NCBI GenBank assembly: GCA_963749155.1
Contig: CAVVLO010000003.1
Coordinates: forward strand, 256,001-320,000
DNA: 64,000 nucleotides
Direction: 5' to 3'
Source of the DNA: an uncultured Armatimonadia bacterium
GTDB taxonomy: Bacteria; Armatimonadota; Zipacnadia; CAVVLO01
In this document: positions 1-35,056 of the stretch, piece after piece
Position numbering within the stretch: position 1 is the first letter of the stretch
How the letters are laid out: every line of letters begins with the position of its first letter
Translations under genes and position numbers: made by a program
Notes under the pieces: model-generated
Databases searched by the model: none
What the model was told of the DNA's origin: nothing
The model's input: only the letters and a program-made list of their open reading frames with translations

Positions 1-705
1 GAGTTCAATATGGAGTTCAACCGCGACCTGGAGCCAATGGTAGGCGGTTACCGAGATAACTATTACTGGCAGTTCGTCGCCGAGATGAGGAAGTATAAGG
101 GTATGGCGCCCCCGCCTGCGCCTTCTGAGCCCACGACCCTCCTGGTCGATGGCAAATTCGAGGACTGGCAAGGCGTGACTCCCCTCTACAAGGACGTGAC
201 GGGCGACACCGCCTGGCGCGACTGGGCAGGCAATCCTGCCGGCGTCCACTACATCAACCAGTCAGGCCGCAACGACCTGGCTGAGGCGCAGGTCGCGCGA
301 GATGAGAAGTCGGTCTACTTCCACATCAAGACGGCCCAGCCGCTTACCTCTGCCGAGGACTCTCAGTGGATGTGGCTGCTGATTGATACCGATAACGACG
401 CGAAGACGGGCTGGGAGGGCTACGACCTGCTGGTGAACAGGCAGCGCAAGCCGGGCCAGGCCAGTATCGAAGTCAATACAGAAGGCGAGTGGCAGTGGGA
501 CGCAGTCGCAGGCGCGCCGCTCGCGGTCGGCGAGGGCGAGCTGGAGCTAGCCTTACCGCGAGGCTACTTCGGCCCCGAGGGAAAGCCGCTGGACTTCGCC
601 TTCAAGTGGGTGGACAACTGCCCTCAGGCGCCCGATGTGATGGATTTCTACACCCAGGGCGATGCCGCGCCTGATGCGCGCTGGAACTGGCTCTACTCGG
701 AATAA
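1..705 (+). CDS. 3' part of a probable secreted glycoside-hydrolase-like protein with a C-terminal CBM9/DOMON-like beta-sandwich (5' end outside the window)
   Basis: Frame open from base 1 (EFNMEFNRDLEPMVGG...). VDGKFEDW and WLLIDTDNDAKTGW are DOMON/CBM9-like motifs. Confidence 0.6.
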   Translation, partial: EFNMEFNRDLEPMVGGYRDNYYWQFVAEMRKYKGMAPPPAPSEPTTLLVDGKFEDWQGVTPLYKDVTGDTAWRDWAGNPAGVHYINQSGRNDLAEAQVARDEKSVYFHIKTAQPLTSAEDSQWMWLLIDTDNDAKTGWEGYDLLVNRQRKPGQASIEVNTEGEWQWDAVAGAPLAVGEGELELALPRGYFGPEGKPLDFAFKWVDNCPQAPDVMDFYTQGDAAPDARWNWLYSE

Positions 706-2614: not shown

Positions 2615-5117
2615 ATGTACAGGTTTTTGCTTCTGCTTCTACTACTAGGCGCTCTGGCCGGGACTGCTTGCGCGGGGCCGCGCCAGGTGATGTCGCTGGA
2701 TGGCCTCTGGCAGCTTGCCGAGGGCTCGATGGAAGCACCGAAAAGCGATTTCTCGACCACGGCGCCAGTGCCGGGCCTCGTGGATATGGCCGACCCCTAT
2801 CTGCCCGATGTAGGGGTAGAAGCCAGCACTCAGCGGCGAGAAGCTTTTTGGTATCGCCGCACCTTCAGCCTGCCTGGCGCAGTGCCCGAGGTCGCCTTGC
2901 TGAAGGTTAACAAGGCCTGCTACACCACGCGCGTCTTCCTCAATGGGCAGCTTGTCGGCGACCATGTCGGCAGCTTCACGCCTGGCTGGTTCGATCTGAA
3001 GCCGGCCCTGAAAGGCGACGGCGCCGAGAACGAGTTGTTGATTCGCGTGGGCGCGTGGCGCCATTTTATGCTTTCCGGCGTACCGGACGGCTACGATGGG
3101 GAGCGAATCAAATATATACCGGGTATCTACGATTCCGTCAGCCTCATCCTGACGGGCAGTCCTTTTATTGTGCGCGCGCAAGTCGTGCCCCAGCTTGAAA
3201 ACAATTCTGCTCGCGTGGTCACAGTCGTGAAGAACGTCGGTCCTGCGGAGGAGGTCGTCCTCACTGGACGCGTGCGAGAGGCCAGGACTGGCCGTATGGT
3301 CGGGCTGATGAAACTACGCCCCGAACGCGATTGCCGCCGGTGAAGAGCTGACTTTCGACTTCAGCGTGCCCCTCCGGGACTGCAAGCTGTGGACGCCAGA
3401 AGACCCCTTCCTCTACAGGCTGGAGCTTTCGACAGGAGCAGATGAATACTCGACCCGGTTCGGGATGCGCACCTTCGCCTTCGACCGCAAGCGAGGCTGC
3501 GCGCTGCTCAACGGCAAGCCCTATCCCCTGCGCGGCACCAATGTGTGCATCTTCCGCTTCTTCGAAGATCCGCTGCGCGAGAACAAGCCCTGGGATGCGG
3601 ACTGGGTGCGCAAGCTGCACGAGGCTTTCCGCTCGATGCACTGGAATAGTATCCGCTATTGCATCGGCTTCCCGCCCGAAGCCTGGTACGACATCGCCGA
3701 TGAGGTCGGCCTGCTGCTTCAGGACGAATATCCAATCTGGGGCATCGGCGTGCCCGAGCTAGTCACAATCGAGGCCCTGACCCAGGAATACACCGAGTGG
3801 CTCGAGGAACACTGGAACCACCCTTCGGTGGCTATCTGGGATGCCCAGAACGAGACCCAATGCGAGGTGACCGGGCAGGGCAATCGCCGCGGTGCGCCAT
3901 CTCGACCTGTCTGACCGGCCCTGGGACAATGGCTGGTCGCCCCCCGACAGGCCGACCGACGTCTTTGAAGCGCATCCCTATGCTTTCATCAACCCCGCTT
4001 TCGAGATGGCGGCTTTTGAGCGGCTGCCGGGCGGGCCTCGGCCAGGCGGGCTATCGGGCAACCCTATGCCCTACAACGGCAACCCGGTCATCATCAACGA
4101 GTATGGCTGGCTGTGGCTCAACCGCGATGCGACCCTGTCAGGCATCTCGCAGGGCTATGGTATTTACAATCGTTTCCTTGGAGCGGATTCGACCGCCGAC
4201 CAGCGACGCAACCTGTATGCGCGACTGCTTGCGGCCAAGACCGAGTTCTGGCGCGCCAAACGCGAGGTCGCCGGGGTGCTGCATTTCTGTGGGCTTCGGC
4301 TATTCCAGGCCCGGCGGAGCGACCAGCGACAACTTTGTGGATATCGAGCAGCTAGAGTTCGACCCGTATTTCTGGCGCTATGTGCGCGACGCTTTCGCCC
4401 CGGTCGGTCTGATGGTGGACTTCTGGCGCGAGGAGGCCCAGGGCGGCAAGCGCGAGGTAAAAGTCTGGGTGACCAATGACCTGCCGCACCGAGTGGAAGG
4501 GCGAGGTGACACTCAGCCTGCTGTCAGGGGAAACGGTGCTCTCCACTTCGACAAGGCATGTGAAGGTCGACGCCTGGCAGGCCAGTCCGTTTGCTTTTGT
4601 GGTCGACTTCCCTAAAGCACCGGGCAGTTACCAGCTTGTTGCAGAACTGACCGGTCAGGACGGAAAACCAGTCCGCAGCCTGCGCGATTTTGCCGTGCTG
4701 ACCGAGCAGGAACGGCTCGAGAAGTATGGCTACACCAAGGGCATAACTGCAAAAGCGTCTTCTGAGATCTTCATCTCGGATCAGCACTATCCCGCCAAAT
4801 ATGCCGTCGATGGGGATCCCACCACCCGCTGGTCGAGTGAGTTCGCCGATCCTCAGTGGCTTGAGCTGGACCTTGGAAAGCCGCAGACCTTCAGCCGAGT
4901 GGAACTCCAATGGGAGGTTGCTTGCGGCAAGGCCTATACGCTAAGCGTCTCTGATGACGGCCAGGACTGGAAGCAGGCCTACGCTACAAGCGCCAGCCCA
5001 GGCGGACTCGAGAAGATAAGCTTCGCACCTGTCACCGGGCGCTATCTGCGTTTCGATTTCACAGAGCGCGCAACGCGCTTTGGTTATTCGCTGTGGGAAG
5101 TGAAGGTGCTCCCATGA
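2615..5117 (+). CDS. Secreted GH2-family glycoside hydrolase with C-terminal F5/8 type C (CBM32-like) domain; about 4 apparent frameshifts
   Basis: Signal peptide, MSLDGLW, WYRRTF, LWTPEDPFLY, FGMRTF, WNHPSVAIWDAQNE, INEYGW, then AVDGDPTTRWSS...WLELDLG. Pieces: 2615-3343, 3366-3914, 3892-4479, 3797-4615, 4476-5117. Confidence 0.85.
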
Positions 5118-7691
5118 GGAGGCTCTTGATGCTTTGTTTCACTCTTATGCTGCTTCTGCTTGCGATTATCCCCGCAAGGGCGGGCATCACTGGCGACCAT
5201 CTGAGGCCGCCGGCTGTGCCGCTGGTCACGCACGACCCCTTCTTTAGCGTCTGGTCGCCCGCTGACAAGCTGACCGAGGCCGACTCAGTCCACTGGACGC
5301 GCCACGCGCATCCACTGCGCAGCCTCATCCGGGTGGATGGCGCTACCTTCCGCCTGCTGGGGGCTGAACCTGTAGCGATTCCAGCCTTCGAGCAGACAGG
5401 TCTCGAAGTGCGCCCAACGACCACGCTGGCCACCTTCGAGGGGCAGGGCGTGAGGGTGGAACTGTCCTTCTGCTCGCCGCTGCTGCCGGATGATTTGGAT
5501 GTGCTTTCGCGGCCTGTTACTTACATAACGTGGAAGGTCGCCTCGCTTGACAGCCAAGAACACTCGGTCCAGCTTTATTTCGAGGCCTCTCCCCTCCTGA
5601 CAGTCAACCAGCCCGACGAAGCGGTTGTTTGGGAGCGCGCCGAGGCAAAAGGGCTGGTGGCCTTGAAGACCGGCACCGAGACCCAGGCAGTGCTCGCTTC
5701 CAAAGGAGACGACCACCGCATCAACTGGGGGTATCTCTACCTGGCCGCGCCAAAAGAAGCTAGCCTGGCTTCTGCACTGACATCTGGGCCTCAGGCGAGA
5801 GAGCAGTTCAAGCAGTCTGGCGCTCTTCTGGCCAGGGACGATGAGCATCAGCCTCGACCTGCCAAGGCTGAGGAGCCGGTGCTGGCGCTGGCTTTCGACC
5901 TCGGCGATGTGACAGAGGTAGTGGAGCGCCATGCGCTGCTTGCATATGATGAAGAGTGGGCCGTCACTTATTTTGGACAGAGGCTGCGACCCTACTGGCG
6001 GCGCACCGGCAAGGACGCCGTCTGGTTGCTCGAACAGGCGGAAAAAGACCGTGAGGACCTTCTCGCGCGCTGCGAGCGGTTCGACACCGAGTTGATGGCC
6101 GACCTCACTGCCGCCGCGAGCGCCCAATATGCCGACATCGCGACGCTCTCCTACCGCCAGGCGCTGGCAGGTTGCGGGCTGGTTGCCGATTCGGCTGGCA
6201 AGCCGTTGCTCTTTCCGAAGGAGAACACCAGCAACGGGTGTATGGGCACGGTGGATGTCTTCTATCCTGCCGCCCCGCTGATGCTGGCGCTCTCCCCCGC
6301 GCTTGCGCGCGCGATGCTGGTGCCACTGCTCGACTACAGCGCCTCGGAGCGCTGGCCCTGGCCTTATGCGCCTCACGATATTGGGGTCTATCCCCTCGGC
6401 GAGGGGCAGGTATACGGGGGTGGAGAACGCACTGAAGAGGGCCAGATGCCGGTTGAAGAGAGCGCCAATATGCTGCTTTTGGTGGCGGCGACTTGCCGGG
6501 CCGAGGGCAGCGGCGCTTTCGCCAAAGAGTGGTGGCCAATCCTCTCCGAGTGGGCAGCCTACCTGCGCGAGAAGGGGTTCGACCCCGCCCATCAGCTTTG
6601 CACTGACGACTTCGCTGGGCCCTTCGCGCACAACGTGAACCTCTCGCTGAAGGCCATCCTGGCCCTGGGCGCGTATGCCCAGCTGGCCCAGCTCGTCGGC
6701 GATGAGTCCGAAGCGGTGGCTTCGCGCAATCTGGCCGAGCGTTTCGCCAAGAGGTGGCTGAAAGAGGCGGACGAGGGCGACCATTATCGCCTGGCCTTCG
6801 ACCAGCCTGGCACCTGGAGCACGAAATATAATCTCATCTGGGACGGTATCCTCGGTCTGGGGCTTTTCCCGCCCGAAGTCGCGGCGAAGGAAACCACGTG
6901 GTATCGTCAGGTCGCCCACGAGTATGGCACCTCACTGGACAGCCGCAATGAGTTCGCGAAGACCGATTGGGCGCTTTGGGCGGCTTCGCTTGCGCCCGAT
7001 GAGGAGACCTTCAGCGCGCTGGTAGACCCAATCTGGCGCTTCCTGAACCAGGTACCCGAACGCAATCCCATCACCGACCTCTACTGGGTCAAGACCGGTC
7101 ACGAGGCCGCAATGCACGCGCGGCCAGTGATGGGCGGCGCCTTCGTCAGACTGCTGCAGGAGCCGGCCCTCTGGGCCAAGTGGGCCGGGCAGGGCGAAAA
7201 GGAACTCGGCCCCTGGGCGCCCTTCCCGAAGCCGCGCAAGTGGCAGCCGCTCGTGCCGACAGCAGAGCAGGAGCCACTGCGTCTGGCGCTACACCACCGA
7301 GCAGCCGGCAGAGGGCTGGTGGAAGCCAGATTTTGATGATTCTGCCTGGGCAGAGGGCCCCGCAGGCTTCGGAGTGCCAGGCACGCCCGGGGCTATCGTG
7401 GGCACAGAGTGGCGCACGCCTGACCTCTGGATTCGCCGAGTTTTCGATGCGCCCAGGCCCAGGGGAGAGCTGGCCCTGCGGATGCACCACGATGAGGACG
7501 CCGAAGTGTATCTCAACGGCGCGCTGATTGCCCGCCTGCCAAGTTATACCTTCGACTATGAGAACGTCGCGCTGACTGAGAAGACTCGCAAGTTGCTGCG
7601 CGAGGGGGCCAATCTGCTGGCTATCCACTGCCGCCAGACCGCAGGTGGACAGTATATAGACGCGGGCTTCTCCGAGTGGCTGGAGGACTGA
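5114..7691 (+). CDS. Secreted glutaminase A (GtaA)-like / DUF4965-DUF5127 protein with C-terminal beta-sandwich; frameshift near 7280
   Basis: LRPPAVPLVTHDPFFSVWS, KENTSNGCMGTVDVFYP, APHDIGVYP, MPVEESANM, QLCTDDFAG, TWSTKYNLIWD. ATGA overlap with the GH2 stop. Confidence 0.85.
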
Positions 7692-7695
7692 GTTT

Positions 7696-8832
7696 TTGCC
7701 AGACTATCCCACTGCAGCAGCCAAAGCACAGCTCTGGGCGGATTATTCTCTCCGCCAGAATCGCCGGGTGCCCTTCCTCTTCTCGGTGGACGAGGCAGTC
7801 TGGACGCAGGTCGCAGGCAGCAGCTTCAAGCGTTTCTATCTCGATCCGCAAGAGCATCTGCGAGTACAACTTGAGGGACTGGCCTGGATGGCGGAGCAGC
7901 TTCCGGGCGATCAGGCGGGCGGGCTGCCGGACCGGTGGACAGTGGGCGTCCGCGACTGGATGGAGGAAAACACCGCTTTCGGCTGCCAGGTTATCTACCA
8001 GGAGGATGACTACGCCTGGGGTTTGCCACTGTCCCTCGGCCAGGACGCACTACTCGGTCATCTGACCGACCTTGATATGGAAGACCAGGTGCGCCGGCAT
8101 CCGTCCCTGCGCCTGTGGGAGGGGCTTTGCGAGCTGACGGACGGGCTGACCTTCCGGGACCGGCCGGTCGAGGTAGCCCCGCCGCTCTTCGGTACGCACG
8201 GGCTCTTCACCAAGGCGGCCGAGTTGCGCGGGCTGGAGCAGCTTTGTCTGGACCTGGTGGACGCGCCGGCCTTCGCGGAGGAGTATCTGAGGTTGTTTAC
8301 CGAGAAGACTCTGGAGCGGATGCGCGCCTGGCATCGCGTTACGCTTGGGACGGAGCCCGACTGGCCGAATCCTTATGGCTATGGATTCGCGGACGACTCG
8401 TTGCAGTTGCTCTCACCGGCTCTCTACCAGCAGTTCGTGCTGCCCTGTCATGAGCATTTTTACAAGGCGCTAACCACGGGGGCGCGTTCGATGCACCTCT
8501 GCGGGTACGCAGAGCAACACTTTGAGGCCTTGCGCTGGCAGCTTGGCATCACGCTGCTGGATGGCCCCGGCCCGTTTGTGCATCATGCGAAGTGGCTGGC
8601 CCGGCTTGGGCCGGACTTCGCCTTCAACGCGCAGGTGGACCATTCCGTGCTGATGGAAGGCACCCCCTCGCAGGTCCGAGAGCATGTTCGACAGTTGCTT
8701 GCGCCGGGGGCGAAGCTACCAGGGCGGTTTCAGGTGCTTGGTTATCTGGTCCGCCAGACGCCACTTGCCAACGCCTGGGCCTGTTATGAAGCGGGGCTGG
8801 ATTTTGGAAGCTGTGAGGAGGCGCCCCTATGA
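7696..8832 (+). CDS. Uroporphyrinogen decarboxylase / MtaA-CmuA-like TIM-barrel family protein
   Basis: GLFTKAAELRGLEQLCLDLVDAP, FADDSLQLLSPALYQQFVLP, MHLCG, TPLANAWA. Confidence 0.8.
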   Translation: MPDYPTAAAKAQLWADYSLRQNRRVPFLFSVDEAVWTQVAGSSFKRFYLDPQEHLRVQLEGLAWMAEQLPGDQAGGLPDRWTVGVRDWMEENTAFGCQVIYQEDDYAWGLPLSLGQDALLGHLTDLDMEDQVRRHPSLRLWEGLCELTDGLTFRDRPVEVAPPLFGTHGLFTKAAELRGLEQLCLDLVDAPAFAEEYLRLFTEKTLERMRAWHRVTLGTEPDWPNPYGYGFADDSLQLLSPALYQQFVLPCHEHFYKALTTGARSMHLCGYAEQHFEALRWQLGITLLDGPGPFVHHAKWLARLGPDFAFNAQVDHSVLMEGTPSQVREHVRQLLAPGAKLPGRFQVLGYLVRQTPLANAWACYEAGLDFGSCEEAPL

Positions 8833-11225
8833 AGTTAGTGCTAGCAACCGGGATTTTGATAGCCCTGGCATTGCCCCTCTTCGCAGCCGAACGGCTGGCC
8901 GGCTCTGACCACGACCTCGTGGCTGACCAGGGCGAAATTGTAACCCTGGAGGCCTCGAATTTCCTTGAGCTGCGCGAAAGTTCCAGTTGCTCCTGGCAGC
9001 AAGTCCGCGGGCCGGACCTCATGGAGAGGCTGACCGCTTTCCAGATTCCAACAGACTGGGGCGAAGAGTATGGCACCCGGTTGCGCGGCTGGTTGCTGCC
9101 GCCTGCGACTGGCGAATACACTTTCTGGATTGCCTCCGACGATGAGAGCGAGCTTTGGCTGTCCACCGATACCGGCCCGAGCAACCGCGATTTGATAGCT
9201 TCGGTGCCTTATTACACGGCACCGGAAGAATGGGAAGCCTTCTCCACCCAGCGCAGCAAGCCATTAAGGCTGGAGGCCGGCAAGCGATATTACGTCGAGG
9301 CGCTGCAGAAAGAGGGCGGGGGCGGAGATCATCTGGCTGTCGCCTGGCAGGGCCCTGGCATCGCAAGACAGGTTATTGCCGGCAAGCATCTGGCGGCCAC
9401 TCAAGACGGAGAGGTCGGAACAATCTCCCGCGAGGTCTGGACGGGTGTGGCAGGTTCGCGCCTCGAAGACCTGCGCAGCAGTCCCAAGTTTACTGGCGGG
9501 CCACAAGCCAGACTCGAGGGCGCTGACTCCCCCACCGCGACCTTCAGGGCTGAGAAGCCAGGCAGCTATGACTTGCGGCTTACTGTCACCTCCCAAGGTA
9601 AATCCGAAGAGATCACCTTCCGGGTGCTTGTCACCGACCAGTTCGTTAACGGGGATTTCGAACTCGCTGAGGGTGATTTACCGGCTGGTTGGGAAGCAAG
9701 CGGTGAAAGCGCGACCTTGCTCTGGCAGCCAACAGGCGGAGTGGCTGACTCCGCCTGCGCCCGTCTTGCTTCAGAGCAGCCTGCCAGTGCTTCCCTCCTG
9801 CAGCACCTTCAGCTTGCCCCCTACACCCCTTATACACTGAAAGGCTATATCAGAGGAGAGGGCTTGAAAGGGTTGGGGCGCCGTCCCGCGACCATCGGGG
9901 TCAGCGAGTGGAAGATGGAGAACGGCCCTGAGCGCGAGGTCAGCGAACTGGACTGGACCTCCTTCCAGGTGGATTTCGCAACCGGCCCTTCGGGTCAGGT
10001 GGATGTCGCCTGCAAGCTGGGTTCTTACTGGGAGGCTGGAAGTGGCGCCGTCTGGTTCGACAACCTGACACTTGAGCGCAATACCGGCACTCGGCGATTC
10101 GAGAGCAAGTACCTGGTGCTCAATCTCTACAAGGATGAAGTCACAGAGGCCACCCCCGAGGGCGTCGAGGAGATGCTGGCCAAGGTGGACAGGATGTGCG
10201 AGGCCTATACCGAGCTTACCGGTTATACGCCTGGCACGACGAAGCAGTCGGCCTGGTCTACGAAGACCCATGACATCGAGGCTCTGGGCTGGAGTGGCAA
10301 TCCGGTGCTCTGGAGCGCCTCTCCCGAGCTGATGCGAGAGTGGCGTAATCCGGATTTCCTCGCCGAGATCTTCTTGCACGAATATGCCCACAACTGGGAC
10401 AACGACAGGTGGACTTTTCACGTTCATTTCAATGAACTGAAGATGTATTACGCCCTGGAACAACTTGATCTAGGCATCTACGAGGACGGCTGGACCAAAG
10501 GCCCCGGCACCCTTAACCGCTGGATTGTGCGTTCGCATAGCCAGCGCGAGCAAGGCCGATGCGATGAGGTCGTGCAGGAATACCGCAATATGCTCCTGGC
10601 GCGCGAGGTCGGCTGGGAGCCCTTCAAAAAGACTTACCGCTATTTCCTGGAGCTGCCTGCCGAAGAAGTGCCGAAGGACGCCTGGAGCAAGTTTGAACTG
10701 TGGCATCAGAAGCTCTCGGAGTTCTCGGGCCAGGACGCTTTCGCCATCTACGAACCTGGTGAGCTGGACTTCGTTCGGGCCTACTACGCGCCTCGGCCCG
10801 AGCTACGCGAGCTGGCGGGTATACCGGCCACTCAGGCGAAGGTCGAACTCACCGATGTGAGATGGGAGGCAGCCGAAGTTGGCTGGGAAGAACCGGCTTA
10901 TCGTATATGTGGCACCAGCGCCAACTGGTACCCGAATTCCATCTACGCTCATGCCCCTTCGCGCTACGTTTATGCGCCTGAGGGCAAGTGGAAACGCTTT
11001 ACTTCGTTCTATGCCCTCGACAAGGGCAACCTTGGATCGGTTGTTTTCGTGGTAAAGGGCGATGGAAGAGAGCTCTTCCGGTCCGAGCTTGTCACCAATT
11101 CTGATGAACGCTCGTGCGAATTAGACCTGACCGGTGTAAACCAGCTCGAACTCCTCGTCGAAGAGGGCCCAGATGGCCGCAACAGCGACCACGGTTGCTG
11201 GTTTGCCCCAACTCTTGAGCGCTAG
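8829..11225 (+). CDS. Secreted modular protein: PKD/Ig-like domain with inserted permuted PA14, CBM4/9-like domain, HExxH (M60-like) metallopeptidase, NPCBM domain
   Basis: PPATGEYTFWIASDD (PA14), FVNGDFE...VWFDNL (CBM), FLHEYAHNW...FNE (zincin), SIYAHAPS...GSVVFVVKGDG...DGRNSDHGCW (NPCBM). Confidence 0.8.
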   Translation: MKLVLATGILIALALPLFAAERLAGSDHDLVADQGEIVTLEASNFLELRESSSCSWQQVRGPDLMERLTAFQIPTDWGEEYGTRLRGWLLPPATGEYTFWIASDDESELWLSTDTGPSNRDLIASVPYYTAPEEWEAFSTQRSKPLRLEAGKRYYVEALQKEGGGGDHLAVAWQGPGIARQVIAGKHLAATQDGEVGTISREVWTGVAGSRLEDLRSSPKFTGGPQARLEGADSPTATFRAEKPGSYDLRLTVTSQGKSEEITFRVLVTDQFVNGDFELAEGDLPAGWEASGESATLLWQPTGGVADSACARLASEQPASASLLQHLQLAPYTPYTLKGYIRGEGLKGLGRRPATIGVSEWKMENGPEREVSELDWTSFQVDFATGPSGQVDVACKLGSYWEAGSGAVWFDNLTLERNTGTRRFESKYLVLNLYKDEVTEATPEGVEEMLAKVDRMCEAYTELTGYTPGTTKQSAWSTKTHDIEALGWSGNPVLWSASPELMREWRNPDFLAEIFLHEYAHNWDNDRWTFHVHFNELKMYYALEQLDLGIYEDGWTKGPGTLNRWIVRSHSQREQGRCDEVVQEYRNMLLAREVGWEPFKKTYRYFLELPAEEVPKDAWSKFELWHQKLSEFSGQDAFAIYEPGELDFVRAYYAPRPELRELAGIPATQAKVELTDVRWEAAEVGWEEPAYRICGTSANWYPNSIYAHAPSRYVYAPEGKWKRFTSFYALDKGNLGSVVFVVKGDGRELFRSELVTNSDERSCELDLTGVNQLELLVEEGPDGRNSDHGCWFAPTLER

Positions 11226-11289: not shown

Positions 11290-14200
11290 ATGCGTCCCTT
11301 AGTGTTGGTAGTGGTTTTTCTCAGTCTGCTCCTCGCGCTGGAGGCGAGTGCCGTGCTTACTCCCCAGGTCATCGACACCAAATTTTCCACCGACGATGTC
11401 GTTATCGCTTCGCTGGTGGTGCAGCCGCCGGCCGACAGGCATGACAACGCTGGGCCGATGCTGCAAGCAGCTATCGATCAGGTGGCTACCGAGGGTGGAG
11501 GGGTAATCTTCCTGCCCGCTGGCATCTACCACATCGCCACTCCGCTGCTGGTGAAGGAGCGCGTAATACTGCGCGGTGACTGGGCGCCCCCTGGCAAAGC
11601 GAAGCCAGGCGAGACGACTGTGCTTGCCATCACGGCCAACAGAGGAGAAGTCGACGGACCCGCTGCGCTTGCCACCGAATTTGGCTCGGGCGTGCGCGAG
11701 GTCACCGTCTGGTATCCCGAGCAAGAACCTGCGGCGATTGTGCCTTACCCCTTCACCTTCGCCACAATACCCTCTGCTAGCGTAGACAACACTTCCATCT
11801 ACAACGTCACGCTCGTAAACGCGTATCAGGGCATCAAGAGCGGCCCCCACAGCAACGAGCTTCATACGCTGCGTAATATCTACGGCACGCCCCTCAAATG
11901 CGGTATCTGGGTGGACACCTGTACCGATATTGGACGGCAGATCCACGTAGATTTCGCCCCGCATTACTGGGTAGAAAGCGGTCTGCCTGGCGCTCCAGAG
12001 TCCCCTTCGGCTGTAGCCGCGCTCGAAGACTGGCTGCTGCACGAGGCTATCGGGGTAGATATGGGTCGCAGCGACTGGGAATATATCTACGACGTGCGTG
12101 TCACTGGCTATCAACAGGGCTTCAAGTTCCACTCAGGGCAGGCGGGCACAACCAATGCGGTGATGTTCGGCTGCGAGACCAAGGGCTGCGATATTGGCAT
12201 CCAGCTTGATGCCCTGAACGGCATCGGCCTGTCTGTAACCGCAAGCAAGCTGGAGGGCCTGACCGCGGCAGTGAGAGGGATGACCAGCTTCGACACGACG
12301 GCCCAATTCCACACTACCGAACTCACCAGCCCCACCGGCGCCTGCGTGTTGCTCGAAGGCAGAGGCCTGCTAAGCTTCCAGCACTGCACTTTCGATGCCT
12401 GGGATGAACTTGCACTAGATGCCCTTGCCGGGCAAGTGAACGCGCTCGATTGCGATTTCAACCAGCGCGGTCTGGCCATAAGGCTTGGGGCCGATGTGCT
12501 TCGCGCGCGCATACTCAGCAACCGGTTCGCCGGTGAGCCAGTCGTGGTCAATTTTAGCGAGGGTGATATCGAGATCGCCCATACGCCAATCGAGTTCGAA
12601 GTGCCCAGTCCAAAGCTGCAGCCAGTGATTCCTGACCCAAGGCCTGCTACAAATAAACTTTTCGTAGTGACCGATTATGGGGCGCTTTCCGGCGGCGCGG
12701 ACTGCACCGCGGCTTTCCAGCGCGCTCTAGACGAGGCTGGAGCGGCAGGCGGCGGTACTGTCTATGTGCCACCTGGCTATTGGTATTTCGATGGCGTGAT
12801 TTCGGTGCCGACGGGAGTGGAGCTGCGAGGTATGTTCGATGTGCCTCATCACACCAGTTCGGCCGGCAGCGTGCTGATGGTGAAGGCCGGCAAGGGCGAT
12901 GAGGCCGGGACGCCCTTCGTGCGCCTTGGCAGCAAATCCGGCCTGCGCGGGCTGACCTTCTGGTATCCCGAGCAAGACCTTACCAACCTTTCGCCCTATC
13001 CCTGGACCATCCAGTCCACCGGCCAGGTAGCTGGATGCTGGATGTAACCTGCGGCAACTCTTATCAGGGCGCCGATTTCTGGACCTACGACAGCACCGGC
13101 CACCTTATCCGGTATTTCGCGGGTTGCTACCTCCGGCGCGGCCTGTTCATCAGCAAATCAGATGGGCCCGGGTATACCGAAGATGTTATGTACAACCCCC
13201 ATTTCAGCGCCCGCTTGCCCAAGGGCATCGTAAAGGCCTGGGAGGGCGACGCCTGGGGGCCGACCATCGACTTCATCTGGCGCAACCAGGAGGGCATCGT
13301 CTTCGGGCGCTGCGATGAAGAATGGGTAGCCCGGACTTTCCTGTTTGCCTCTTATGCGGGGATGAAGTTCGCTGACGATAACGGCGGGATGAGAGGCCAG
13401 GTTGTAAACCATGGTACCGACGCGGGCAGTGTCGGGGTGCTTTTCGAAGCGACCTCTGAGGAGGGAGTAGATCTCTACAACACCCAACTCGTGCATTTTG
13501 GACCCGTCCAGAAGTGCGCCATCGAGACCTCACCCGAGCTTCAACGGGACGGCCAGACTCTTCAACAGCCAGCTCTGGGCAGGCCCGACAAGCGGAATAA
13601 TCGCCGGCCCGGGCAAGTTGCTGCTGCAACAGATGAACACCCTCACAGGGCCCTTCTACGTCGAGGGGGGCGACTTTACCCTTGAGAACTGCCACTTCAC
13701 CAATGAGCTGACGCCGCATGTCACCCTCGGCGAGAACGTGAAATCAGCCCGGATGCTCGCCAATGTTTCGGGTGGCGTGTTCAAAGTTGAGAACAACGCG
13801 GGTGACCGGTCTGTGGCAACTTGGCAGCTCGGCCGTTACAGCGCCCAACCTCGGTACCGGAGGCGCCCCGTATACCTTCGCTTCAGGCTTCGAGCCGGCC
13901 GATATCCAGCCCTTCACCGATACCATCCAGATGGAAGGCGGCGGGACTCGAGCGGTTGATAATCCGGTCTGCCAGCTTGTGGCAGGGGCCGGGCGCGAGG
14001 GGGGCACTGCTCTGCGCGTAGCAGGCCTGTCAACTGACGCCAGCTACTCCTTCGTCTATTATCGCGTCTTCGCGACGCCTCTGGCTATCGCAAGCGACAC
14101 CAAACTCACTTACTGGATAAACCCCGAAGATGAAGAAGGCCGCAAGATTGCGGTTGATTTGCTGTTTGCCGGTGGCGGATATATGCGCGATATGGGCATC

Positions 14201-14665
14201 GCGAACAGTCAGGGGCAATCTTCTCGCCCAGGTGGCAATGCGGGCGATCCCGGCGAGTGGCATCAGATAACTGTGCCGCTCGGTTCCTTAACCGGCAAGA
14301 CCATCTCGGTCATAATGTTCGCGTATGATTCTCGCACCGCTGGCAAGCCTTTCTCGGCCCTGATTGATGACATAAGTCTGACTTCGGATGTCGCTACTTC
14401 TCCCTGGAAGGTAGAAACCGACCCGGCTGAGGGCCAACTCGAAGTCGGTATGCCTCTGAGGCTTGCCAGTACCGCTCCGGGCATCCGTTACACACTGGAT
14501 GGGTCCAATCCAACCGGTGACTCGCCCCTTTACACTGGGCCTATTGTGCCGACCAAGCCAGGCCTGCTGGAAGTCCGTTTCACCACTATAAAAGAAGACG
14601 GTGTGCCAGGTTCGCTCATCTTCAGCAGGCTGTTCGATGTGCTGCCCCAGGGAGGCGCCGAATGA
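11290..14665 (+). CDS. Secreted double right-handed beta-helix protein (pectate lyase 3 / GH55-GH87-like) with C-terminal CBM-like and CHB_HEX_C-like domains; about 3 frameshifts
   Basis: Two GGGxx(F/Y)xPxGxY motifs (LQAAIDQVATEGGGVIFLPAGIY; AFQRALDEAGAAGGGTVYVPPGYW); C-terminal IRYTLDGSNPTGDSPLYTGPI. Confidence 0.75.
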
Positions 14666-15735: not shown

Positions 15736-15756
15736 TACAACCGAGGAGACTTGAGT

Positions 15757-18235
15757 ATGGAGAAGCTAGTTGTCCTGCTTCTGCTTGCGATGGCGGCAAT
15801 GGTCAGCGCGCAGACCAACTTCCTCATCGCCGGCGATTTCGAGGGGACCGAGGCGCGCGAGGCCTGGGGTGGCGCTGAGCTTGTTCAGTTAGTTGGGCCG
15901 ACGGGCCAGCAGACCACCGGGCTGCGTTCCCAGACCGCCACCATCACCTGGGCAATGGCAGGTCAGAGCTTGCGCCTGCCCGCTGGGGCGGTCACCTTGC
16001 GGCTTGCGGGCTGGGCCAGGGGCGAGGCGCTTACTCCCTCTGAGGCTGAGCCCTACTATCGCGCGCAGCTCCAGGTGGGCTTCTTTGGCGGAGGCGGCGA
16101 GCAACTCGGCAACTGGGAAAGCGCCAATCTGCCGAGTGGCGATTCTGACTGGACTTTCTATGAGGGCCAGTGGCCAGTGCCCGAGGGCGCCTGGCGCGCG
16201 CAGATATATCTGGGCAACAACCACGTCACCGGGACTTCCTGGTTCGATAACGTAGTGGTGGAAGTGCTTGACGAGAGCGGCGCGGCGCTCCAGCCTGTCA
16301 CCGAGCAGCACACCGATGTCACTGGGTGGTATCCACTGGCTTCGCCAGATGTCTCGCCTGACGCTGGCAGCCCGCTTGACCTGTCGTGGCTTAATGAGAA
16401 GCCCGCTGGTTCGCACGGCTTCATCACTGCGCAAGGGCGATGAGTTCGTTTTCGAGGACGGCACCCCAGTGAAGTTCTGGGGCACCAACTGCGTCGCGGG
16501 CGCGGCCTTTCCCGACCACGCACTGGCCGAGCAAGTCGCTGGGATGATCGCCCGCAGCGGTTTCAATCTGGTGCGTTTTCATCATATGGACGCCGACTGG
16601 GCTGCGCCCAATATCTTCGACATCGCCGGCAGCACCTACGACAAGCCGACGCGCCAGCTTTCCGCCGAGAGCCTCGACAGGCTGGACTACTTCATCGCGC
16701 AGCTCAAGCAGCACGGCGTCTACGTGATGCTGGACCTGCTGGTGCATCGTCGGTTCAACCAGGAAGATCTGCGCGGGCAGCCTGACCCCGACCGGGGCGC
16801 GAAAGAGGCTGCGATGTTCGACCCGGTGCTGTGGGACCTGCAGTGTGAATATGCCACCCAGCTTCTCACTCACGAGAACCCCTATACGGGCAACCGGTAC
16901 GTGGATGAGCCTGCCCTGGTGCTGTCCGAGTGCATCAACGAGAGCAGCCTCTTCTATCCCTGGGGCCTCAGCTCGATGAAGCAGGACCGGCCCTACTACT
17001 ATGACGAGCTGGTCGGCCTGCTCGAAGGCTGGTGTCAGGAGCAGAACCAGCCTCTGCCAGAGGGTGACCTGGCCGACCTCTTGCAAAGTGGCAATACTGT
17101 CGTCCTGGAGTTCCTCTACGAGACACAAACGGCCTACTTCCAGCGGCTGCGAGAGTTCTTGAGAGGGCTAGGCTACCGCGTGCCAATCACTGGCAGCAAC
17201 CACTGGGAGCGTCACGTCGGTGATCTACGCTCCAACGCCATGCTGGACTGGATTGACACCCACAATTACTGGGACCACCCCCAGGGCGGCTATTCGCCGA
17301 CCAACAACTTCGGCAATTCCAGCACGCTAAAGGGAAGAGGGACCAATCTGGCCTCTTACCTGGCGATTATGCAGGTGGTCGACAAGCCACTTACCATCAG
17401 CGAGTGGAACTGTGTCTGGCCCAACGAATACATCATCGAAGGGCCACTGTTGATGGCCGCAACCGGGGCAATCCAGGGCTGGGATGGCCCGATGCAGTTC
17501 TCCTGGGGCGGCTACAGCGCATCACTCGACCATATGGATGGGTGCTTTGAGAACTGGAACAAATCGCACTTTATGGCCGCAGGCTGGGCAGCCGCACTGC
17601 TGTTCCGTCGCGGCGATGTCAAACCCGCCGATTGGGGCTGGGTAGAGCCGCTCTCAGCCGATCCAGCTGCCTATTTCAAAACGCCACTTGCTGCTCTTCC
17701 CGAGGGAGAATACCTGCGCTCTGCGGTCGGCAACTCACTGGATGGTCAGGAATTGTCGAAATCTGGCGAAGCAAACGGCGAGGTAAAGCATGATCCTGAC
17801 CAGGGCGTGCTGGTGCTGGATACCGCAAGCTCCCAAGGCGCAGTCGGCTTCCTCGCGGACAAACTCACCGAGACAAGCCTGCTGGCTATCGAGGTCGAAG
17901 AGACGCCCTTCTGTCAGGTCTTCCTGTCCAGCCTCGACAGCAAGCCACTGGCTGAATCGCAACGGATGGCACTTACAGCGGTCGCGCGCGCCGAAAACAC
18001 AAATCAGGTCTGGAAGCCCTTCCGCAATGGGCTGAAGGACCTCGGCACCGGGCCAGTGCTGATGGAACCCGTGCGCGCGACAGTGACGCTCAAGGGCGCA
18101 AGGTCACTCACCGTGACCGCCCTCGACCAGCATGGCAACCCGACCGGACGCACCATCCCAGTGGATGTCACCACCCTCGGCGCGACCTTCCAGCTCGGGG
18201 AAGGCCAGGCCTTCTGGTATCTGCTGGAACGCTAA
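15757..18235 (+). CDS. Secreted GH5-like (clan GH-A) hydrolase with N-terminal carbohydrate-binding beta-sandwich; frameshift near 16430
   Basis: Signal peptide, PAGSHGFI, VKFWGTN, GFNLVRFHH, LDRLDYFIAQLKQHGVY, HENPYTG, INE, ISEWN. Confidence 0.8.
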
Positions 18236-21646: not shown

Positions 21647-23278
21647 TTACTCGAATTCGAACCAGTAGAGCTTCGCCTGGTTCAGCTTGACCTTCAGCAC
21701 GACCGCTTCGCCTTCGCCTGCGCCGAGGTCCTCCCCGCCCGCCCACTTGACCGGGGCGTTGTGCAGATCGCCAATCAACGGAGTGCAGTCACCGAAGTCT
21801 CTGCCCCCAAAAGGCGCGCGCCCGATATTGCAGGCGGCAATCTGGAGGCTTCCCCCGCGCTTCGTCACTGCGTTGATCTTGAGTTTCTTGCCGGGTGGGA
21901 TGAAGGCCACGGTCGAGAATTCGCCAAGCTGCTCGGCTTCGAGCCCCACGAGCCGGCCCTTAGGCCAGATGGCCATCCCGATATCGTAGGCCCAGGCGCC
22001 GCGTGGATACTTGTGGGGGAAGGCATATCCAGTATAGGGCAGTGCGAAATCGCCACTGGGCAGTTCGACCAGGTTGGGAGCGGCGAATACAGTGCCGCCG
22101 TCGAACTCGCCGAATTCGCCGGTCTCGAAGAGAGTGCCGTTCGGCAGCCAGTCCCAGTAGCGGCTGTCGGTGCTGCTCGCAAGCACGATGCGGGTGGAGT
22201 CCGAAGCCATATCCCACACCGCCGGGAACATCAGCCTGGCCTCGGGCGCGCCTGGATAAGTGCCGTAGCAGTTGGTGTAGAGCACTTCGCTGGGCAGCAT
22301 ATCGGGGGGGGAGTGCAAGACAATCTCCGACAGCGGAAACTGGTCGAAAGTGGCGGCTTCGCTACGCCCAATGGAGCGCCTGCCCACCATATACCAGGGC
22401 TGACCTTGCCCCTCGGCATAGCCCGGGGCGCGCTCGGACAGCCACCAGTTGCGCGTCCAAAGCACATATTTGCCAAGCAGCGCATCCCAGCAACCGATGT
22501 TCTGCGTGTCGGCGTGTTCGACCGCCAACGGTTCGGGGACGTCGGTCCAGTGATAACCATCTGGCGAATAGGCGCCGAACAACGCAAAGGCTACTCCCAC
22601 ATCAGCCCGCCAGGCGCGCGGTTCGCACCGGTCGGGATATTTCGCGCACAGCTCATCATAGCGCTCTTTGGTCAGGTCACGTGTCCCAACTGCCTTATAA
22701 CGTTGCTCTGGAGGGGCTGTAGGGTCTAGAAAGATGGCCCCCGGCAGCCCGAGCAGGACATTATTCTCGGTCTCGCCGCCCCAATCCACCAGCTTGAGAT
22801 TGGGCCTTTCCCACACCAGGCCGTCTGTGGACTCGAAATAGACCTCATGGCCAGCGCCCTGGTCATCCTGGCAGCCTGCCCAAAGCCGATATTTGTCGCC
22901 GTCCTTAAGCAGAGTGCCAGCGCTGAGGCCCATCGCGACCAGCGGCCTGTCGCGCTCTATTATCGGGCCGCGCTTCTCGGCGCGTTCGACCACGAACTTG
23001 ATGCCGCGCGGCATATCTTCGGTGACAAACCGCGCATCCCATGGGCCAGCTTTTACGGCGCGACTGGTGGCTATCCCGTTGCCCTGGGCATCCAGCCAGT
23101 TGTGAGCGCCTGGCCTGACGTAGAGCCAGTCCACGAAAGTCATACGAGCACCGGGCAGCACGTATGGCTCACCGGTCGTGGCGCCAGGCAGCGCGCCTCC
23201 CCCTACGATATTGGTTGGCATCTGCGCGCAGCACAACGTTGCGATCAAAAGCACCAGCAACACAAGTACCGGTAACAT
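21647..23278 (-). CDS. Secreted putative five-bladed beta-propeller glycosidase (GH32/43/130-like clan), paralog 1
   Basis: Signal peptide after GGAGG RBS; Asp-box-like YFESTDGLVW and YSPDGYHW; C-terminal LKINA beta-sandwich. Confidence 0.65.
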   Translation of the reverse strand: MLPVLVLLVLLIATLCCAQMPTNIVGGGALPGATTGEPYVLPGARMTFVDWLYVRPGAHNWLDAQGNGIATSRAVKAGPWDARFVTEDMPRGIKFVVERAEKRGPIIERDRPLVAMGLSAGTLLKDGDKYRLWAGCQDDQGAGHEVYFESTDGLVWERPNLKLVDWGGETENNVLLGLPGAIFLDPTAPPEQRYKAVGTRDLTKERYDELCAKYPDRCEPRAWRADVGVAFALFGAYSPDGYHWTDVPEPLAVEHADTQNIGCWDALLGKYVLWTRNWWLSERAPGYAEGQGQPWYMVGRRSIGRSEAATFDQFPLSEIVLHSPPDMLPSEVLYTNCYGTYPGAPEARLMFPAVWDMASDSTRIVLASSTDSRYWDWLPNGTLFETGEFGEFDGGTVFAAPNLVELPSGDFALPYTGYAFPHKYPRGAWAYDIGMAIWPKGRLVGLEAEQLGEFSTVAFIPPGKKLKINAVTKRGGSLQIAACNIGRAPFGGRDFGDCTPLIGDLHNAPVKWAGGEDLGAGEGEAVVLKVKLNQAKLYWFEFE

Positions 23279-23404
23279 ATGAGACCTCCCAAGAACAAAC
23301 ACCGCAGGGGATAGCATCCCCTGCACCCGCACTAGTTGGCTTCGATGTGAACTCTTCCGGATATATCGGGTTCCTGACCGAAGGTCAGGCCTCTGCTCCC
23401 GATA
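23274..23404 (-). repeat. About 130-nt structured leader, near-identical to 25046-25178 (family B hairpin + family A hairpin + RBS)
   Basis: Identical run aacatatgagacctcccaagaac...gtgaactcttc and tcgggttcctgaccgaaggtcaggcctctgctcccga in both copies. Confidence 0.85.
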
Positions 23405-23407
23405 CTC

Positions 23408-25050
23408 CTACTCGAACTCGAACCAGTACAGCTTCGCCTGATTCAGTTTCACCTTCAAGATTAGCGCTTCGCCCTCGGCAAGGCCCAGGTCTTCTCCACC
23501 GGTCCACTTAACGGAAGCGTTGTTCGAGATCGCCAATCAGGGGCGCGCAGTCATCGAAGCCGCGCCCAGGCAGAGGCTGCCGACCGATATTGCAGGCCGC
23601 AATCTGGATACTTCCCCCTCGCTTCGTCACTGCGTTGATTTTCAACTTCTTGCCTGGCGGGACGAAACCTACAGTCGTGAACTCTCCAAGCTGCTCTGCT
23701 TCGAGGCCCATCATCCGCCCCTTGGGCCAGAGGGCATAAGCAGTATCGAGCTGCAGCAAGCCGCGCGGATACTTGTGAGGAAGGCTCCACGCCGCGTAGG
23801 GCAGCGCCAGATCGCCGTTGGGCAATTCCACCAGGTTAGGCTGGGGGAAGATGCACCCGCCATCGAACTCGCCGAAGGCGCCGGTATCGAGCACCGTGCC
23901 GCCCGGCAGCCAGTCCCATACCCGGCCGTCACTGCTGCCTGCGATCTCGATGCGCGTGGTGTCGGAGTCCATATTCCAGATGGCAGGGAACATCAACCGA
24001 GCCTCAGGCGCTTTCGGGAAGACCGTATAGCAGTTGGTGTAGAGCACTTCACTCGGCAGCATATCGGGGGGAGAGTGCAAGACGAGCTCTGACAGCGGAA
24101 ATTGCTCGAAATTGGCGCTCTCGGTGCGCCCTATAGACCGCCTGCCTACCACCCACCAGGGTTCTCCCTGCCCCTCCGGATAGCCTGGCGCGCGCTGGGC
24201 AAGCCACCAGTTGCGCGTGTAGAGGACATATTTACCGAGCAGCGCATCATAGCAGCCAGTATTGCTGAGCGTATCGGCATGCTCGATGTTGAGCGGCTCT
24301 GGTAGCTCCGTCCAGTGCAGTCCATCAGGAGACGTGGCGCCAAATAGTCCGAAGACGACCCCAACATCGGAGCGCCACGCGAGCGGATCCCAGCGGTCAG
24401 GATATTTCGCCGAGAAGGCATCATAATCAGCCTTGGACATACCCTCAAGGCTGACCGACTTGAATCTGGCTCTCGGCAGGCGCGCCGGCATCGAGAAAGA
24501 CCATCGCCTCCGGGCCTGGCAAGCCCTCGATAAAGTTGTTTTCTTTCGAACCCTCTACCTCGACCAGCCCGAGGCTCGGGCGATTCCAGTACAAGCCGTC
24601 CAGCGATTCGAAATAGCAATAACGCTGCTTGCCGTCTTCAGCCTGAGCCAGCGCCCAAAACTTATAAGTATCGCCGTCCTGAAGCAGCGCCACGGGCCTC
24701 AGTTGCATTGCCTCATAAGGGGCCTGTCGCTGGATAATCGGGCCACTCTTGACGGCCTGCTCCAGGCAGAACTTGATGCCGCGTGGCATATCCTGCGTCG
24801 CGAAGTTGGCGCCCAAGGGGCCAGCTTTCAGATCTTTCTTCGCAGTTATGGTGCCTTGCTCGTTGTACCAGTTCAGTGCCCCAGGCCTGATATAGAGCCA
24901 ATCCACGAAGACCATCCGCTGGCCTGGCAGCACGTACGGCTCTCCTTTTGTCTGACCGGGCAGCGCCCCGCCGCCTGGCAAGTTAGACGGGAGCTGGGCA
25001 CAGGCCAGCGTTGCAATTAAAAGTACCACCAGCACCAGAACAGGCAACAT
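23408..25050 (-). CDS. Secreted putative beta-propeller glycosidase, paralog 2 (tandem duplicate of 21647-23278); frameshifts near 24480 and 23520
   Basis: Shares MLPVLVL.VLLIATL, EPYVLPG, VLHSPPDMLPSEVLYTNCY and the C-terminal LNQAKLYWFEFE*. Confidence 0.75.
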
Positions 25051-25178
25051 ATGAGACCTCCCAAGAACAAACACCGCAGGGGATAGCATCCCCTGCACCC
25101 GCACTAGTTGGCTTCGATGTGAACTCTTCTGCGTGTTTCGGGTTCCTGACCGAAGGTCAGGCCTCTGCTCCCGAAACC
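25046..25178 (-). repeat. Second copy of the structured leader, upstream of paralog 2
   Basis: See 23274-23404. Outer stem is GTTTCGGG/CCCGAAAC here versus TATCGGG/CCCGATA in the other copy. Confidence 0.85.
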
Positions 25179-25278
25179 TGCTTGCATCGCAGGGCTGAGT
25201 ATTCCCTCGCTCTACTTCCCTTTCCTGCCAGCGGAAGTGCTGATGATGCGTCGAAATCTTCGTCAGGGAGGGATTCTG

Positions 25279-33535: not shown

Positions 33536-35056
33536 TTGCCTTGTCTCCAAATCGAATCAGAAGCCGAGGATGCCCAGGATCGCTTCCTTCTCACGCTGGC
33601 CTTTCGTCTTGCCGGCACGATGTATTACGAAGCCCAGTGCAAGGCAGGCGAGCAGGTGTTCTTCAACCGCGAACCTGCCAACAAGTATGATGAACGCGCT
33701 ATTGGTATCCAGAACGAAGATTTCCAAAAAGCTGGCTATGTACCACGCGAGGAAGCTTACTGGCTGGCGCCCCTGCTCGATGCAGGCCAGATAAGGCTCA
33801 CAGGGCGTATCGCTTTGCCCGAGACCCCACCCAATCCTGATTCAGAACTCGAGATCAGCCTCTATCTCACCCCAAAGGGCGAAGTCCTGCTTGACCCCTT
33901 CCCCACCCCCGCGACAGAAGAAGAAGCCTTGCACAACCTGCTGCTTGAGGCCTGGAAGCAGAGCGAGGAGGCTGGTCTGCCCAAAGTCGCAAAACGGCTT
34001 GCAAGCCGGCTTAAGTCTCTCCTCAATCGCGATAGCCTGCCCCAGTCGCAGCTTGCTCTCCAACTGATTGCGCAGTCGGGCCTGGCAGCAGCGCGCAAGC
34101 GGGCCGAAGCTAGCGCCCTCATCACCACCGAGTGGCTGCGCGAACTGGAAACAGGCCAGCCTGTCAGCGCGCACGGGCTTTCGCTCTTCCCGTTATTTGC
34201 AAAACATCAGGTAGGCCAGGACTATCTGCTGCTCGAGCAGGCACTCGAACTCGGCGCGCTAGAGCTAGGTGAGGTCTCCGAATCCGGTTCGGTGCCTGAG
34301 CTTATGGTTGTGAACAAGGGCGACCTGGCCGTGCTGCTGCCCGAGGGGCAAGTGGTGATGGGCGGCAAGCAAAACCGCGTCATCAATCTTTCAGTTATCG
34401 TAGAAGCCCACACCGAATACAGGCTGCCTGTAAGCTGCGTTGAACAGGGGCGCTGGTCCTCGGCGAAGGAAGCCTTCCGGGCAGCCAGCTTCGCGCCAAC
34501 CGAGTTGAGAGCGCGCAAGACGGCTTCTGCCAATCAGAATCTTCGCGAACGCGGTGTTGCGGAAAGCGACCAGGGGCAAGTCTGGGCTGATGTCCACGCC
34601 TGCCTTGCCGCCTCTGATATCGCCTCTCCAACAGGCGACCTGTCCGCCAGTTTTGGGCGTCGCACAAGCTCGATTAGCGAGCTGTACGAGCAGCTTCCTC
34701 TTGCCGAAGGGGCCGTTGGGTTTTTCTTTGCGCAGGGCGATAATCTGCTTGGAGGCGAAGTGTTCGACAATCCCAAGACCTTGAGGACACTCTGGCCCCG
34801 CCTTTGTGAAACCTATTTCGTCCGCGCTTTGCTTGCCTCCGAGATCGAAGGTGAAACCAGCTCCGAGACCGTCAGCGCCTTTCTGGCCTTGCTCTCGGAT
34901 GGAGTAACCGCGCCCCGGCCAGGCGAAGATACCTTCGACCGGCCAGAGCTTGCACTTGCTGGTTTCATTGGCTCCGCGCTTGTCTGGCGTGGCGCTGTCA
35001 GGCAGCTCACAGTGCTTGAACTTACCGAGACTTTCGGCTTTCCTTTCGAACGCTGA
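33536..35056 (+). CDS. HIRAN domain fused to ARPP-1 (DUF6569-like) domain
   Basis: N-terminal LAGTMYY...REPANKYDERAI...GYVPR (HIRAN); C-terminal EVSESGSVPEL.V.N...GGKQNR...PVSCVEQGRW...QGQVW (ARPP-1). Confidence 0.8.
   Translation: MPCLQIESEAEDAQDRFLLTLAFRLAGTMYYEAQCKAGEQVFFNREPANKYDERAIGIQNEDFQKAGYVPREEAYWLAPLLDAGQIRLTGRIALPETPPNPDSELEISLYLTPKGEVLLDPFPTPATEEEALHNLLLEAWKQSEEAGLPKVAKRLASRLKSLLNRDSLPQSQLALQLIAQSGLAAARKRAEASALITTEWLRELETGQPVSAHGLSLFPLFAKHQVGQDYLLLEQALELGALELGEVSESGSVPELMVVNKGDLAVLLPEGQVVMGGKQNRVINLSVIVEAHTEYRLPVSCVEQGRWSSAKEAFRAASFAPTELRARKTASANQNLRERGVAESDQGQVWADVHACLAASDIASPTGDLSASFGRRTSSISELYEQLPLAEGAVGFFFAQGDNLLGGEVFDNPKTLRTLWPRLCETYFVRALLASEIEGETSSETVSAFLALLSDGVTAPRPGEDTFDRPELALAGFIGSALVWRGAVRQLTVLELTETFGFPFER

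Follow-up and report, generated by a model that had tools for sequence, protein, structure and literature searches.

The locus lies in a window of 64,000 nucleotides (the whole stretch of DNA that was analysed) from an uncultured Armatimonadia bacterium, and comprises a single open reading frame on the forward strand whose product, here termed P0001, joins several sugar-binding-type modules to a zinc peptidase domain (Table 1). We confirm that this frame encodes a circularly permuted PA14 domain of 163 codons lodged within a PKD domain. The boundaries of the insert were set by the residue pattern in seven homologs and may shift by a few codons.

Table 1. Features of the P0001 gene, in coordinates of the window
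Feature	Position	Strand	Residues	Basis or remark
Open reading frame of P0001, 798 aa	8829..11225	+		domain order: PKD with nested permuted PA14, CBM-like, M60-like, NPCBM
PKD/Ig-like host, N-terminal half	8886..9008	+	20-60	PKD profile positions 6-44; model 5..253 against 2yrl 10..97
GCGGGCC, copy 1	9007..9013	+	61-62	reads Gly-Pro
Permuted PA14 insert, 163 codons	9009..9497	+	G61-G223	profile, rotation scan, homologs
PA14 core and last strand	9009..9398	+	61-190	canonical positions ~33-164; PF07691 positions 44-141
Asp-Asp at the PA14 calcium/sugar-binding DcisD place	9138..9143	+	D104-D105	invariant in 7/7 type A proteins; aligned with RsgI PA14 chains
Linker between original PA14 C- and N-termini	9399..9413	+	191-195	best rotation opens here
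Original PA14 N-terminal strand and loop, now last	9414..9497	+	196-223	profile positions 8-30
GCGGGCC, copy 2	9496..9502	+	224-225	reads Gly-Pro
PKD host, C-terminal half	9498..9638	+	224-270	opens with PKD-typical Gly-Pro; PF22352 positions 36-82
CBM4/16/22-like beta-sandwich	9639..10082	+	271-418	Z 13-14, rmsd 2.4-2.8 to CBM22-type chains
M60-like zinc peptidase domain	10095..10736	+	HExxH H517-H521, E536	PF13402
Empty site; sister clade has a differently permuted PA14 here	10650..10670	+	~608-614	family comparison
NPCBM (CBM51-like)	10842..11216	+	672-796	E 4e-23; Z 18-19

Inspection by eye points to a likely signal peptide in residues ~1-20 of P0001. The match of its peptidase domain to PF13402 is marginal (27.5 bits against a cut-off of 25.8), and the homologs P0270 and P0255 fall under the cut-off; the HExxH motif and E536, the third-ligand glutamate, are invariant in the type A proteins, as we call P0001 and the six homologs that share its layout. 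The NCBIfam profiles returned no match. The closest folds to the predicted peptidase domain are M60 glycopeptidases and M1 aminopeptidases with similar Z-scores (12.7 for M1). Like the M60-like glycopeptidases ZmpB of Clostridium perfringens (7js4) and AM0627 of Akkermansia (7yx8; Z 12.0, rmsd 5.6, 247 aligned), P0001 combines HExxH and a downstream glutamate with a CBM51/NPCBM module, but unlike a close relative of either it is distant from them, at 10-17% identity. Another family of the HExxH type (L004, L005, P0272, P0273) has NPCBM domains closely alike that of the window (46-49% identity), a likeness which suggests module exchange between peptidase families. The three sugar-binding-type modules of P0001, taken with neighboring genes for GH2, GH95, GH116 and GH29 enzymes, a sulfatase and a glucuronoyl esterase, indicate that it is likely to be a secreted M60-like zinc peptidase that is targeted to glycans. 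The Asp-Asp motif of its PA14 domain binds calcium and sugar in solved PA14 structures (PMC6852018), and the permuted domain is likely to still bind sugar via calcium, displayed on the PKD domain as a stalk.

Several further features of the window were recorded alongside. A pectate-lyase-like gene is read as three overlapping frames (11290-14665); contigs of two other sequencing runs have one extra base behind 13022, so that at least the break there is likely an assembly error. Several other genes, among them a GH2 gene, a glutaminase-A/DUF5127-like gene, a GH5-like gene and a beta-propeller-like pair, are likewise split over frames (2615-5117, 5093-7691, 15751-18235 and 23508-25458), and such splitting of glycan-related genes suggests further one-base errors. 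On the reverse strand at 21647-25458 lie two adjacent paralogs without a Pfam match, with long similar stretches that include the 5' leader, and the pair looks like a tandem duplication. A HIRAN domain fused to an ARPP-1 domain is encoded at 33536-35056, among the carbohydrate genes.

The permutation of the PA14 domain had been proposed in a preliminary description of the DNA, and it emerges clearly from profile comparisons. Using a profile of 309 PA14 domains from 119 other proteins, seeded only with the core of the insert, we found that the native insert matches as two pieces in reversed order (positions 38-164 at 195.9 bits and 8-30 at 13.9 bits), whereas rotation unites them in a single match over positions 9-164 at 223.5 bits, so that coverage rises from 38-164 as had been anticipated. 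Pfam itself detects the domain (PF07691, 38.9-42.9 bits against a cut-off of 24) from profile position 44 onward only. A scan of all rotations places the best opening at the linker of residues 191-195, which resembles the linkers of tandem PA14 arrays; the original termini are thus joined where the preliminary description had put them (~9390-9420), and the order of parts that it gave for the insert also holds. Rotation gains 20.0-25.7 bits in 7/7 type A inserts, and the best rotation restores the canonical order in all 13 of the permuted inserts in the family, strongly in type A and more weakly, though in a controlled manner, in the type B inserts discussed below. By the profile and the predicted model, all parts of the beta-sandwich including its first strand are present in rotated order, and the relocated block of residues 196-223 is modeled with a strand at fragment residues 180-186 (pLDDT ~90). 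Both the permutation and the split of the PKD domain stand far above chance.

The last segment of the insert might alternatively be read as the stub of a second tandem PA14 domain. This was rejected since no first strand precedes the core and the PKD domain resumes at once. Other permuted copies were sought elsewhere: none was seen among 252 PA14 proteins, where 17 candidates without a first strand looked unpermuted by eye, nor, apart from members of the P0001 family, in 25 loci of the phylum, and the best 150 matches of a profile-free search were multi-PA14 arrays only.

Evidence that the two flanks constitute one PKD domain, as the preliminary description had also claimed, comes from a profile of 12 intact PKD domains collected using C-terminal halves only. 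The joined flanks of P0001 give a single match over positions 6-90 at 54.2 bits, as compared with 34.8 for the C-terminal half by itself and with at most 42.7 when the N-terminal half is replaced by any of 100 shuffled versions. The joined halves exceed all 100 shuffles in 5/7 type A proteins and do not exceed the best shuffle in the other two. Pfam detects the C-terminal half only, with PF22352 at 20.2 bits under a cut-off of 27, and an earlier profile grown from one seed, which is too few, gave 9.7 bits for the joined flanks versus 12.1 for the C-terminal half. A predicted model of residues 20-272 (mean pLDDT 88.8, pTM 0.73; 2/5 models scored under 60) displays a PKD fold that spans the insert, superimposing on the PKD domain 2yrl across model residues 5..253 with Z 10.2 and an rmsd of 1.8 A over 82 aligned residues. 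This model was built on 20 alignment rows, of which 13 are tandem-PA14 proteins picked for the purpose, and on account of these it leans toward the PA14 fold. A full-length model, made from 7 rows without the tandem-PA14 proteins, also unites the flanks (2yhg, Z 10.5, model 22..269); its residues 64-83 and 186-224 are under pLDDT 50, leaving the moved strand unsure. Collectively, the profile and the predicted models support the flanks being one PKD domain with an Ig-like fold.

At both junctions, the residues on each side change identity at the same position. When the type A PA14 domain is rejoined, the spacing from its conserved Trp to Pro is 21 in 7/7 proteins, as it is in all six type B proteins where this region is intact; among canonical PA14 domains the spacing ranges from 16 to 22, with 21 the second commonest value (164 domains) behind 17 (305 domains). 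The rejoined host PKD likewise has a Trp-to-Leu spacing of 10 in 7/7, a value found in 8/28 matched intact PKD domains (range 9-11). Judged by these residue spacings, neither the PA14 nor the PKD domain of type A has lost or gained a residue, and the insert amounts to exactly one unit.

The junctions of P0001 also carry the heptamer GCGGGCC, which the preliminary description took for direct repeats flanking the insert. The two copies are indeed at 9007-9013 and 9496-9502, in frame, 489 nt apart and both reading Gly-Pro. Nevertheless, 408 pairs of exact 7-mers occur within this reading frame, in 61 of which the two copies are in frame at a distance of 300-700 nt, and GCGGGCC occurs 498 times on the forward strand of the 4.17-Mb genome; the 7-nt repeat by itself is not beyond chance. 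Gly-Pro is present at both ends in only 1/7 type A proteins, and the DNA of one homolog's junctions has no such repeat. The residue before the first Pro is Glu in five of the six homologs and Ala in one, both common there in canonical PA14 domains, while Gly is outside the 15 commonest residues at this place among 722 such domains. The second junction has Gly in 5/7 type A proteins, and Gly-Pro is found in 31 of 43 pattern-matched intact PKD domains (of 108). The repeat thus arises at both junctions because of protein motifs, namely the PKD-typical Gly-Pro and the PA14-typical x-Pro. On the strength of these residue frequencies, we interpret the downstream Gly-Pro as the host PKD's own motif and the upstream Gly as likely a later substitution in the P0001 lineage. 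So, the repeat is real at both junctions but is neither conserved nor a target-site duplication or relic of insertion. The shared Pro may have provided two or three matching bases.

These data also bear on the view that a mobile element inserted here recently, GCGGGCC being its target-site duplication, or that the arrangement is an error of assembly. GCGGGCC coincides precisely with the two junctions and at least one likely one-base assembly error is close by; yet the six homologs, at about 50% identity (49-53%), agree in layout and cut point but lack the repeat. The junctions are spanned by contigs of three other runs (X6 8700-9244 and 9365-9677, X2 9381-9565, X3 9388-9570), which contain no joint that skips the insert, and this refutes an assembly artefact. 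A query with the insert found no second PA14 or donor copy in the P0001 genome. We hold this view to be highly improbable. The shared layout of the homologs and the bridging contigs instead point to an old nested architecture, free of assembly error; the insertion event is fixed and not ongoing, and no DNA-level trace of it survives.

The family of P0001 is patchy, being found in 5/401 genomes of the phylum including this one, with two further matches to the NPCBM only. We assembled 20 family proteins: seven of type A, six of type B and seven in which no PA14 is seen. An allele with an intact PKD and without the 163 residues, for which the preliminary description had proposed a search, was not found among these 20, nor in 79 genomes of the class, the 401 of the phylum and the scans of the collection. 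The type B proteins have no PKD domain; their PA14 is inserted in the helical terminal part of the peptidase domain, and its leading segment is the one that normally comes last. The permutation signal is weaker than in type A: rotation gains 2.8-8.3 bits in 6/6, and transferring the 12 leading residues to the end scores above 200/200 random 12-mers in five proteins and 196/200 in one. What follows the type B insert could be host sequence or an eroded end of PA14; the host alignment favors the former. Among type A proteins the linker that closes the unit spans 21 residues in two and 24 in five, and among type B proteins 21 in five and 20 in one (that of P0001 was counted by hand). Compared with the closest relative whose site is empty, the type B insert lacks about one residue of a full unit. 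All type B sequences retain the Asp-Asp motif. Immediately upstream of one type B gene lies a reverse-strand frame (L002:2775-3881) for a very acidic protein with many DxDxDG-type repeats.

In the host tree, types A and B separate at 100/100 support and insert-free proteins nest in both clades (P0267 and P0268, which are incomplete at the start, were entered as having no insert); this nesting likely denotes losses of PA14. One insert-free member of the type B clade, P0271 (L028:1501-3231), retains at the insertion site four residues that resemble the beginning of the PA14 insert, perhaps a remnant of secondary loss. The mean identity between A and B PA14 domains is 49.4%, near the host A-B figure of 44.8%, and the mean identity of canonical domains to B is at most 48.4% (n=722). 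Of these canonical domains, 45 match A as closely as B does, and the set may lack nearer relatives of type B because it was collected from a type A query. Free trees recover no single clade of the 13 permuted domains. When one is forced, the likelihood is 4.69 higher in one set (p-AU 0.575) and 10.73 lower in another (p-AU 0.291). The A-B identities suggest that the type A and type B domains may descend from one PA14.

As for the origin of the insert, any window of one unit laid over the junction of an array is a permutant, which makes a tandem source likely, and we consider it very probable that a tandem PA14 array was the source. Linkers of under 15 residues are found in 141/528 neighboring PA14 junctions, and PKD-PA14 arrays are common, P0064 having the order PKD-PA14-PA14-PKD. 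Separately, P0121, P0124-P0130, P0137 and P0152-P0154, proteins of 1,000-2,600 residues, were seen to carry long arrays in which PKD and PA14 alternate, with up to seven PA14 domains.

How a unit left such an array is a matter on which we are more guarded. A gene with the layout of P0064 could have undergone two successive in-frame deletions, the first PKD half becoming joined to the first PA14 core and the second PA14 N-terminal strand to the second half of the last PKD. The commonness of PKD-PA14 arrays and the very existence of the four-domain layout speak for this, as does the second PA14 of P0064 being the best canonical BLAST match to the P0001 insert (56% identity). However, both deletions must hit the same register in both domains, the intermediate has two broken domains, type B is left unexplained, and the PA14 domains of P0064 belong to a clade (99/98 support) in which no type A or B domain is found; we regard this route as rather improbable.

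The explanation that we place foremost, tentatively and at somewhat less than even confidence, is a DNA circle of one unit derived from a PA14 array and integrated by a single crossover. A head-to-tail PA14 array would be the source of one repeat unit; exactly one unit would pop out of it as a small DNA circle, which would then integrate through a single in-register crossover. As the circle would be openable anywhere, two permuted forms could result. Were it opened in a surface loop, the new termini would lie side by side, so that a loop of the host could accept the insert. The exact type A register in both host and insert is what one reciprocal crossover would give for free. The extended proposition that the same PA14 unit, as a 0.5-kb circle, was opened at two points and inserted in frame at the PKD and peptidase sites of one gene family, with permutation and insertion as one step, we advance with distinctly greater reserve.

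The insert itself codes for PA14 only. Several results speak against the circle: the lack of a conserved junction repeat, the free trees without one permuted clade, the linker span of 24 in five type A proteins, the missing intact-PKD allele, and the 43 scanned frames of the window, among which no recombinase was seen. Selection for a folded product also would yield one-unit inserts, which counts against the circle and underlies a further route that dispenses with it. Here, a window over a tandem PA14 junction would be captured in linear form through template switching or gene conversion. Each capture would involve two switch points, one copy entering the PKD and another, independently, the peptidase, and selection for folding would retain only windows of one unit. 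Tandem arrays with short linkers hold exactly this order of parts, the trees leave a single ancestry of the A and B forms unsettled (p-AU 0.575, 0.291), and the shortfall of about one residue in type B also speaks for such copying. How circular permutations originate is still debated; published accounts invoke either duplication and trimming or fission and fusion, and the former is the one favored in the accessible text of these sources (PMC3320104, PMC13552848). Against linear capture, both loops vary naturally in length, yet in type A the host and the insert both keep their exact lengths; two independent events in one small family are also less economical, given that no permuted copy was seen in the 252 other PA14 proteins or in the other phylum loci. 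We deem this route unlikely, though it is to be taken seriously beside the circle.

Turning to precedents, the insert resembles the tandem PA14 dyads of RsgI (6QE7/6QDI; PMC6852018) in its Asp-Asp motif and in fold (6qe7: Z 13.1, rmsd 2.6, 120 aligned), and also the Marinomonas PA14 6X95 (Z 10.5); unlike these, its order is rotated by ~30 residues and it is nested in another domain. Insertion of PA14 is described for two glycoside hydrolases, KmBglI of GH3 and CjXyl31A of GH31 (cited in PMC4444583), where, as here, the domain lies within another domain of a carbohydrate-related enzyme. Their structures (3abz and 2xvg, respectively) align only to model residues 41-157, i.e. the unpermuted core. 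We take the PA14 domains of both to be in canonical order, whereas the present insert is permuted and its host is a non-catalytic PKD domain or, in the relatives, a peptidase.

A class of 'insertional and circular permutant' domains, to which ours are alike in being both inserted and circularly permuted, has been defined with RNA polymerase inserts as examples (DomainMapper, 10.1101/2022.03.19.484986; PMC13114784). PA14 is absent from the main texts of these two sources and, by name, from three supplements of PMC13114784, and their available portions present no case of two opening points within one gene family. PDZ domains are reported to be often inserted and to have four circularly permuted forms (CIRPIN, PMC13552848); in contrast to that structure-level survey across families, both PA14 forms here occur in sister clades of one gene with the sequence register kept. 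In wine yeast, region B was amplified through a circle with little or no homology at the junctions, and differing opening points at differing sites are treated as the mark of a circular intermediate (PMC3053389). As described there, region B is a eukaryotic segment of 17 kb with several genes, a replication origin and eight forms, whereas the PA14 unit is a bacterial, in-frame, single domain of 0.5 kb in two forms. Our literature search, which covered mainly openly accessible papers, found no permuted PA14, and the CIRPIN and DomainMapper supplements may list such pairs. What is novel here rests mainly on the two PA14 opening points in one family. Permutation between CBM60 and CBM36 is reportedly the subject of a published paper.

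The biology of P0001 by itself, likely that of a glycan-targeted peptidase, is ordinary. The wider import of the locus is in part a warning, in that annotation by profiles reports permuted inserted domains as truncated. The register kept at both junctions and the two opening points found beside empty alleles make this family a small natural test case for permutation and insertion in one step. Moreover, permutation plus insertion is the operation used by protein engineers for building switches, and the family offers two natural cut sites in PA14 together with two tolerant loops, in the PKD and M60-like folds.
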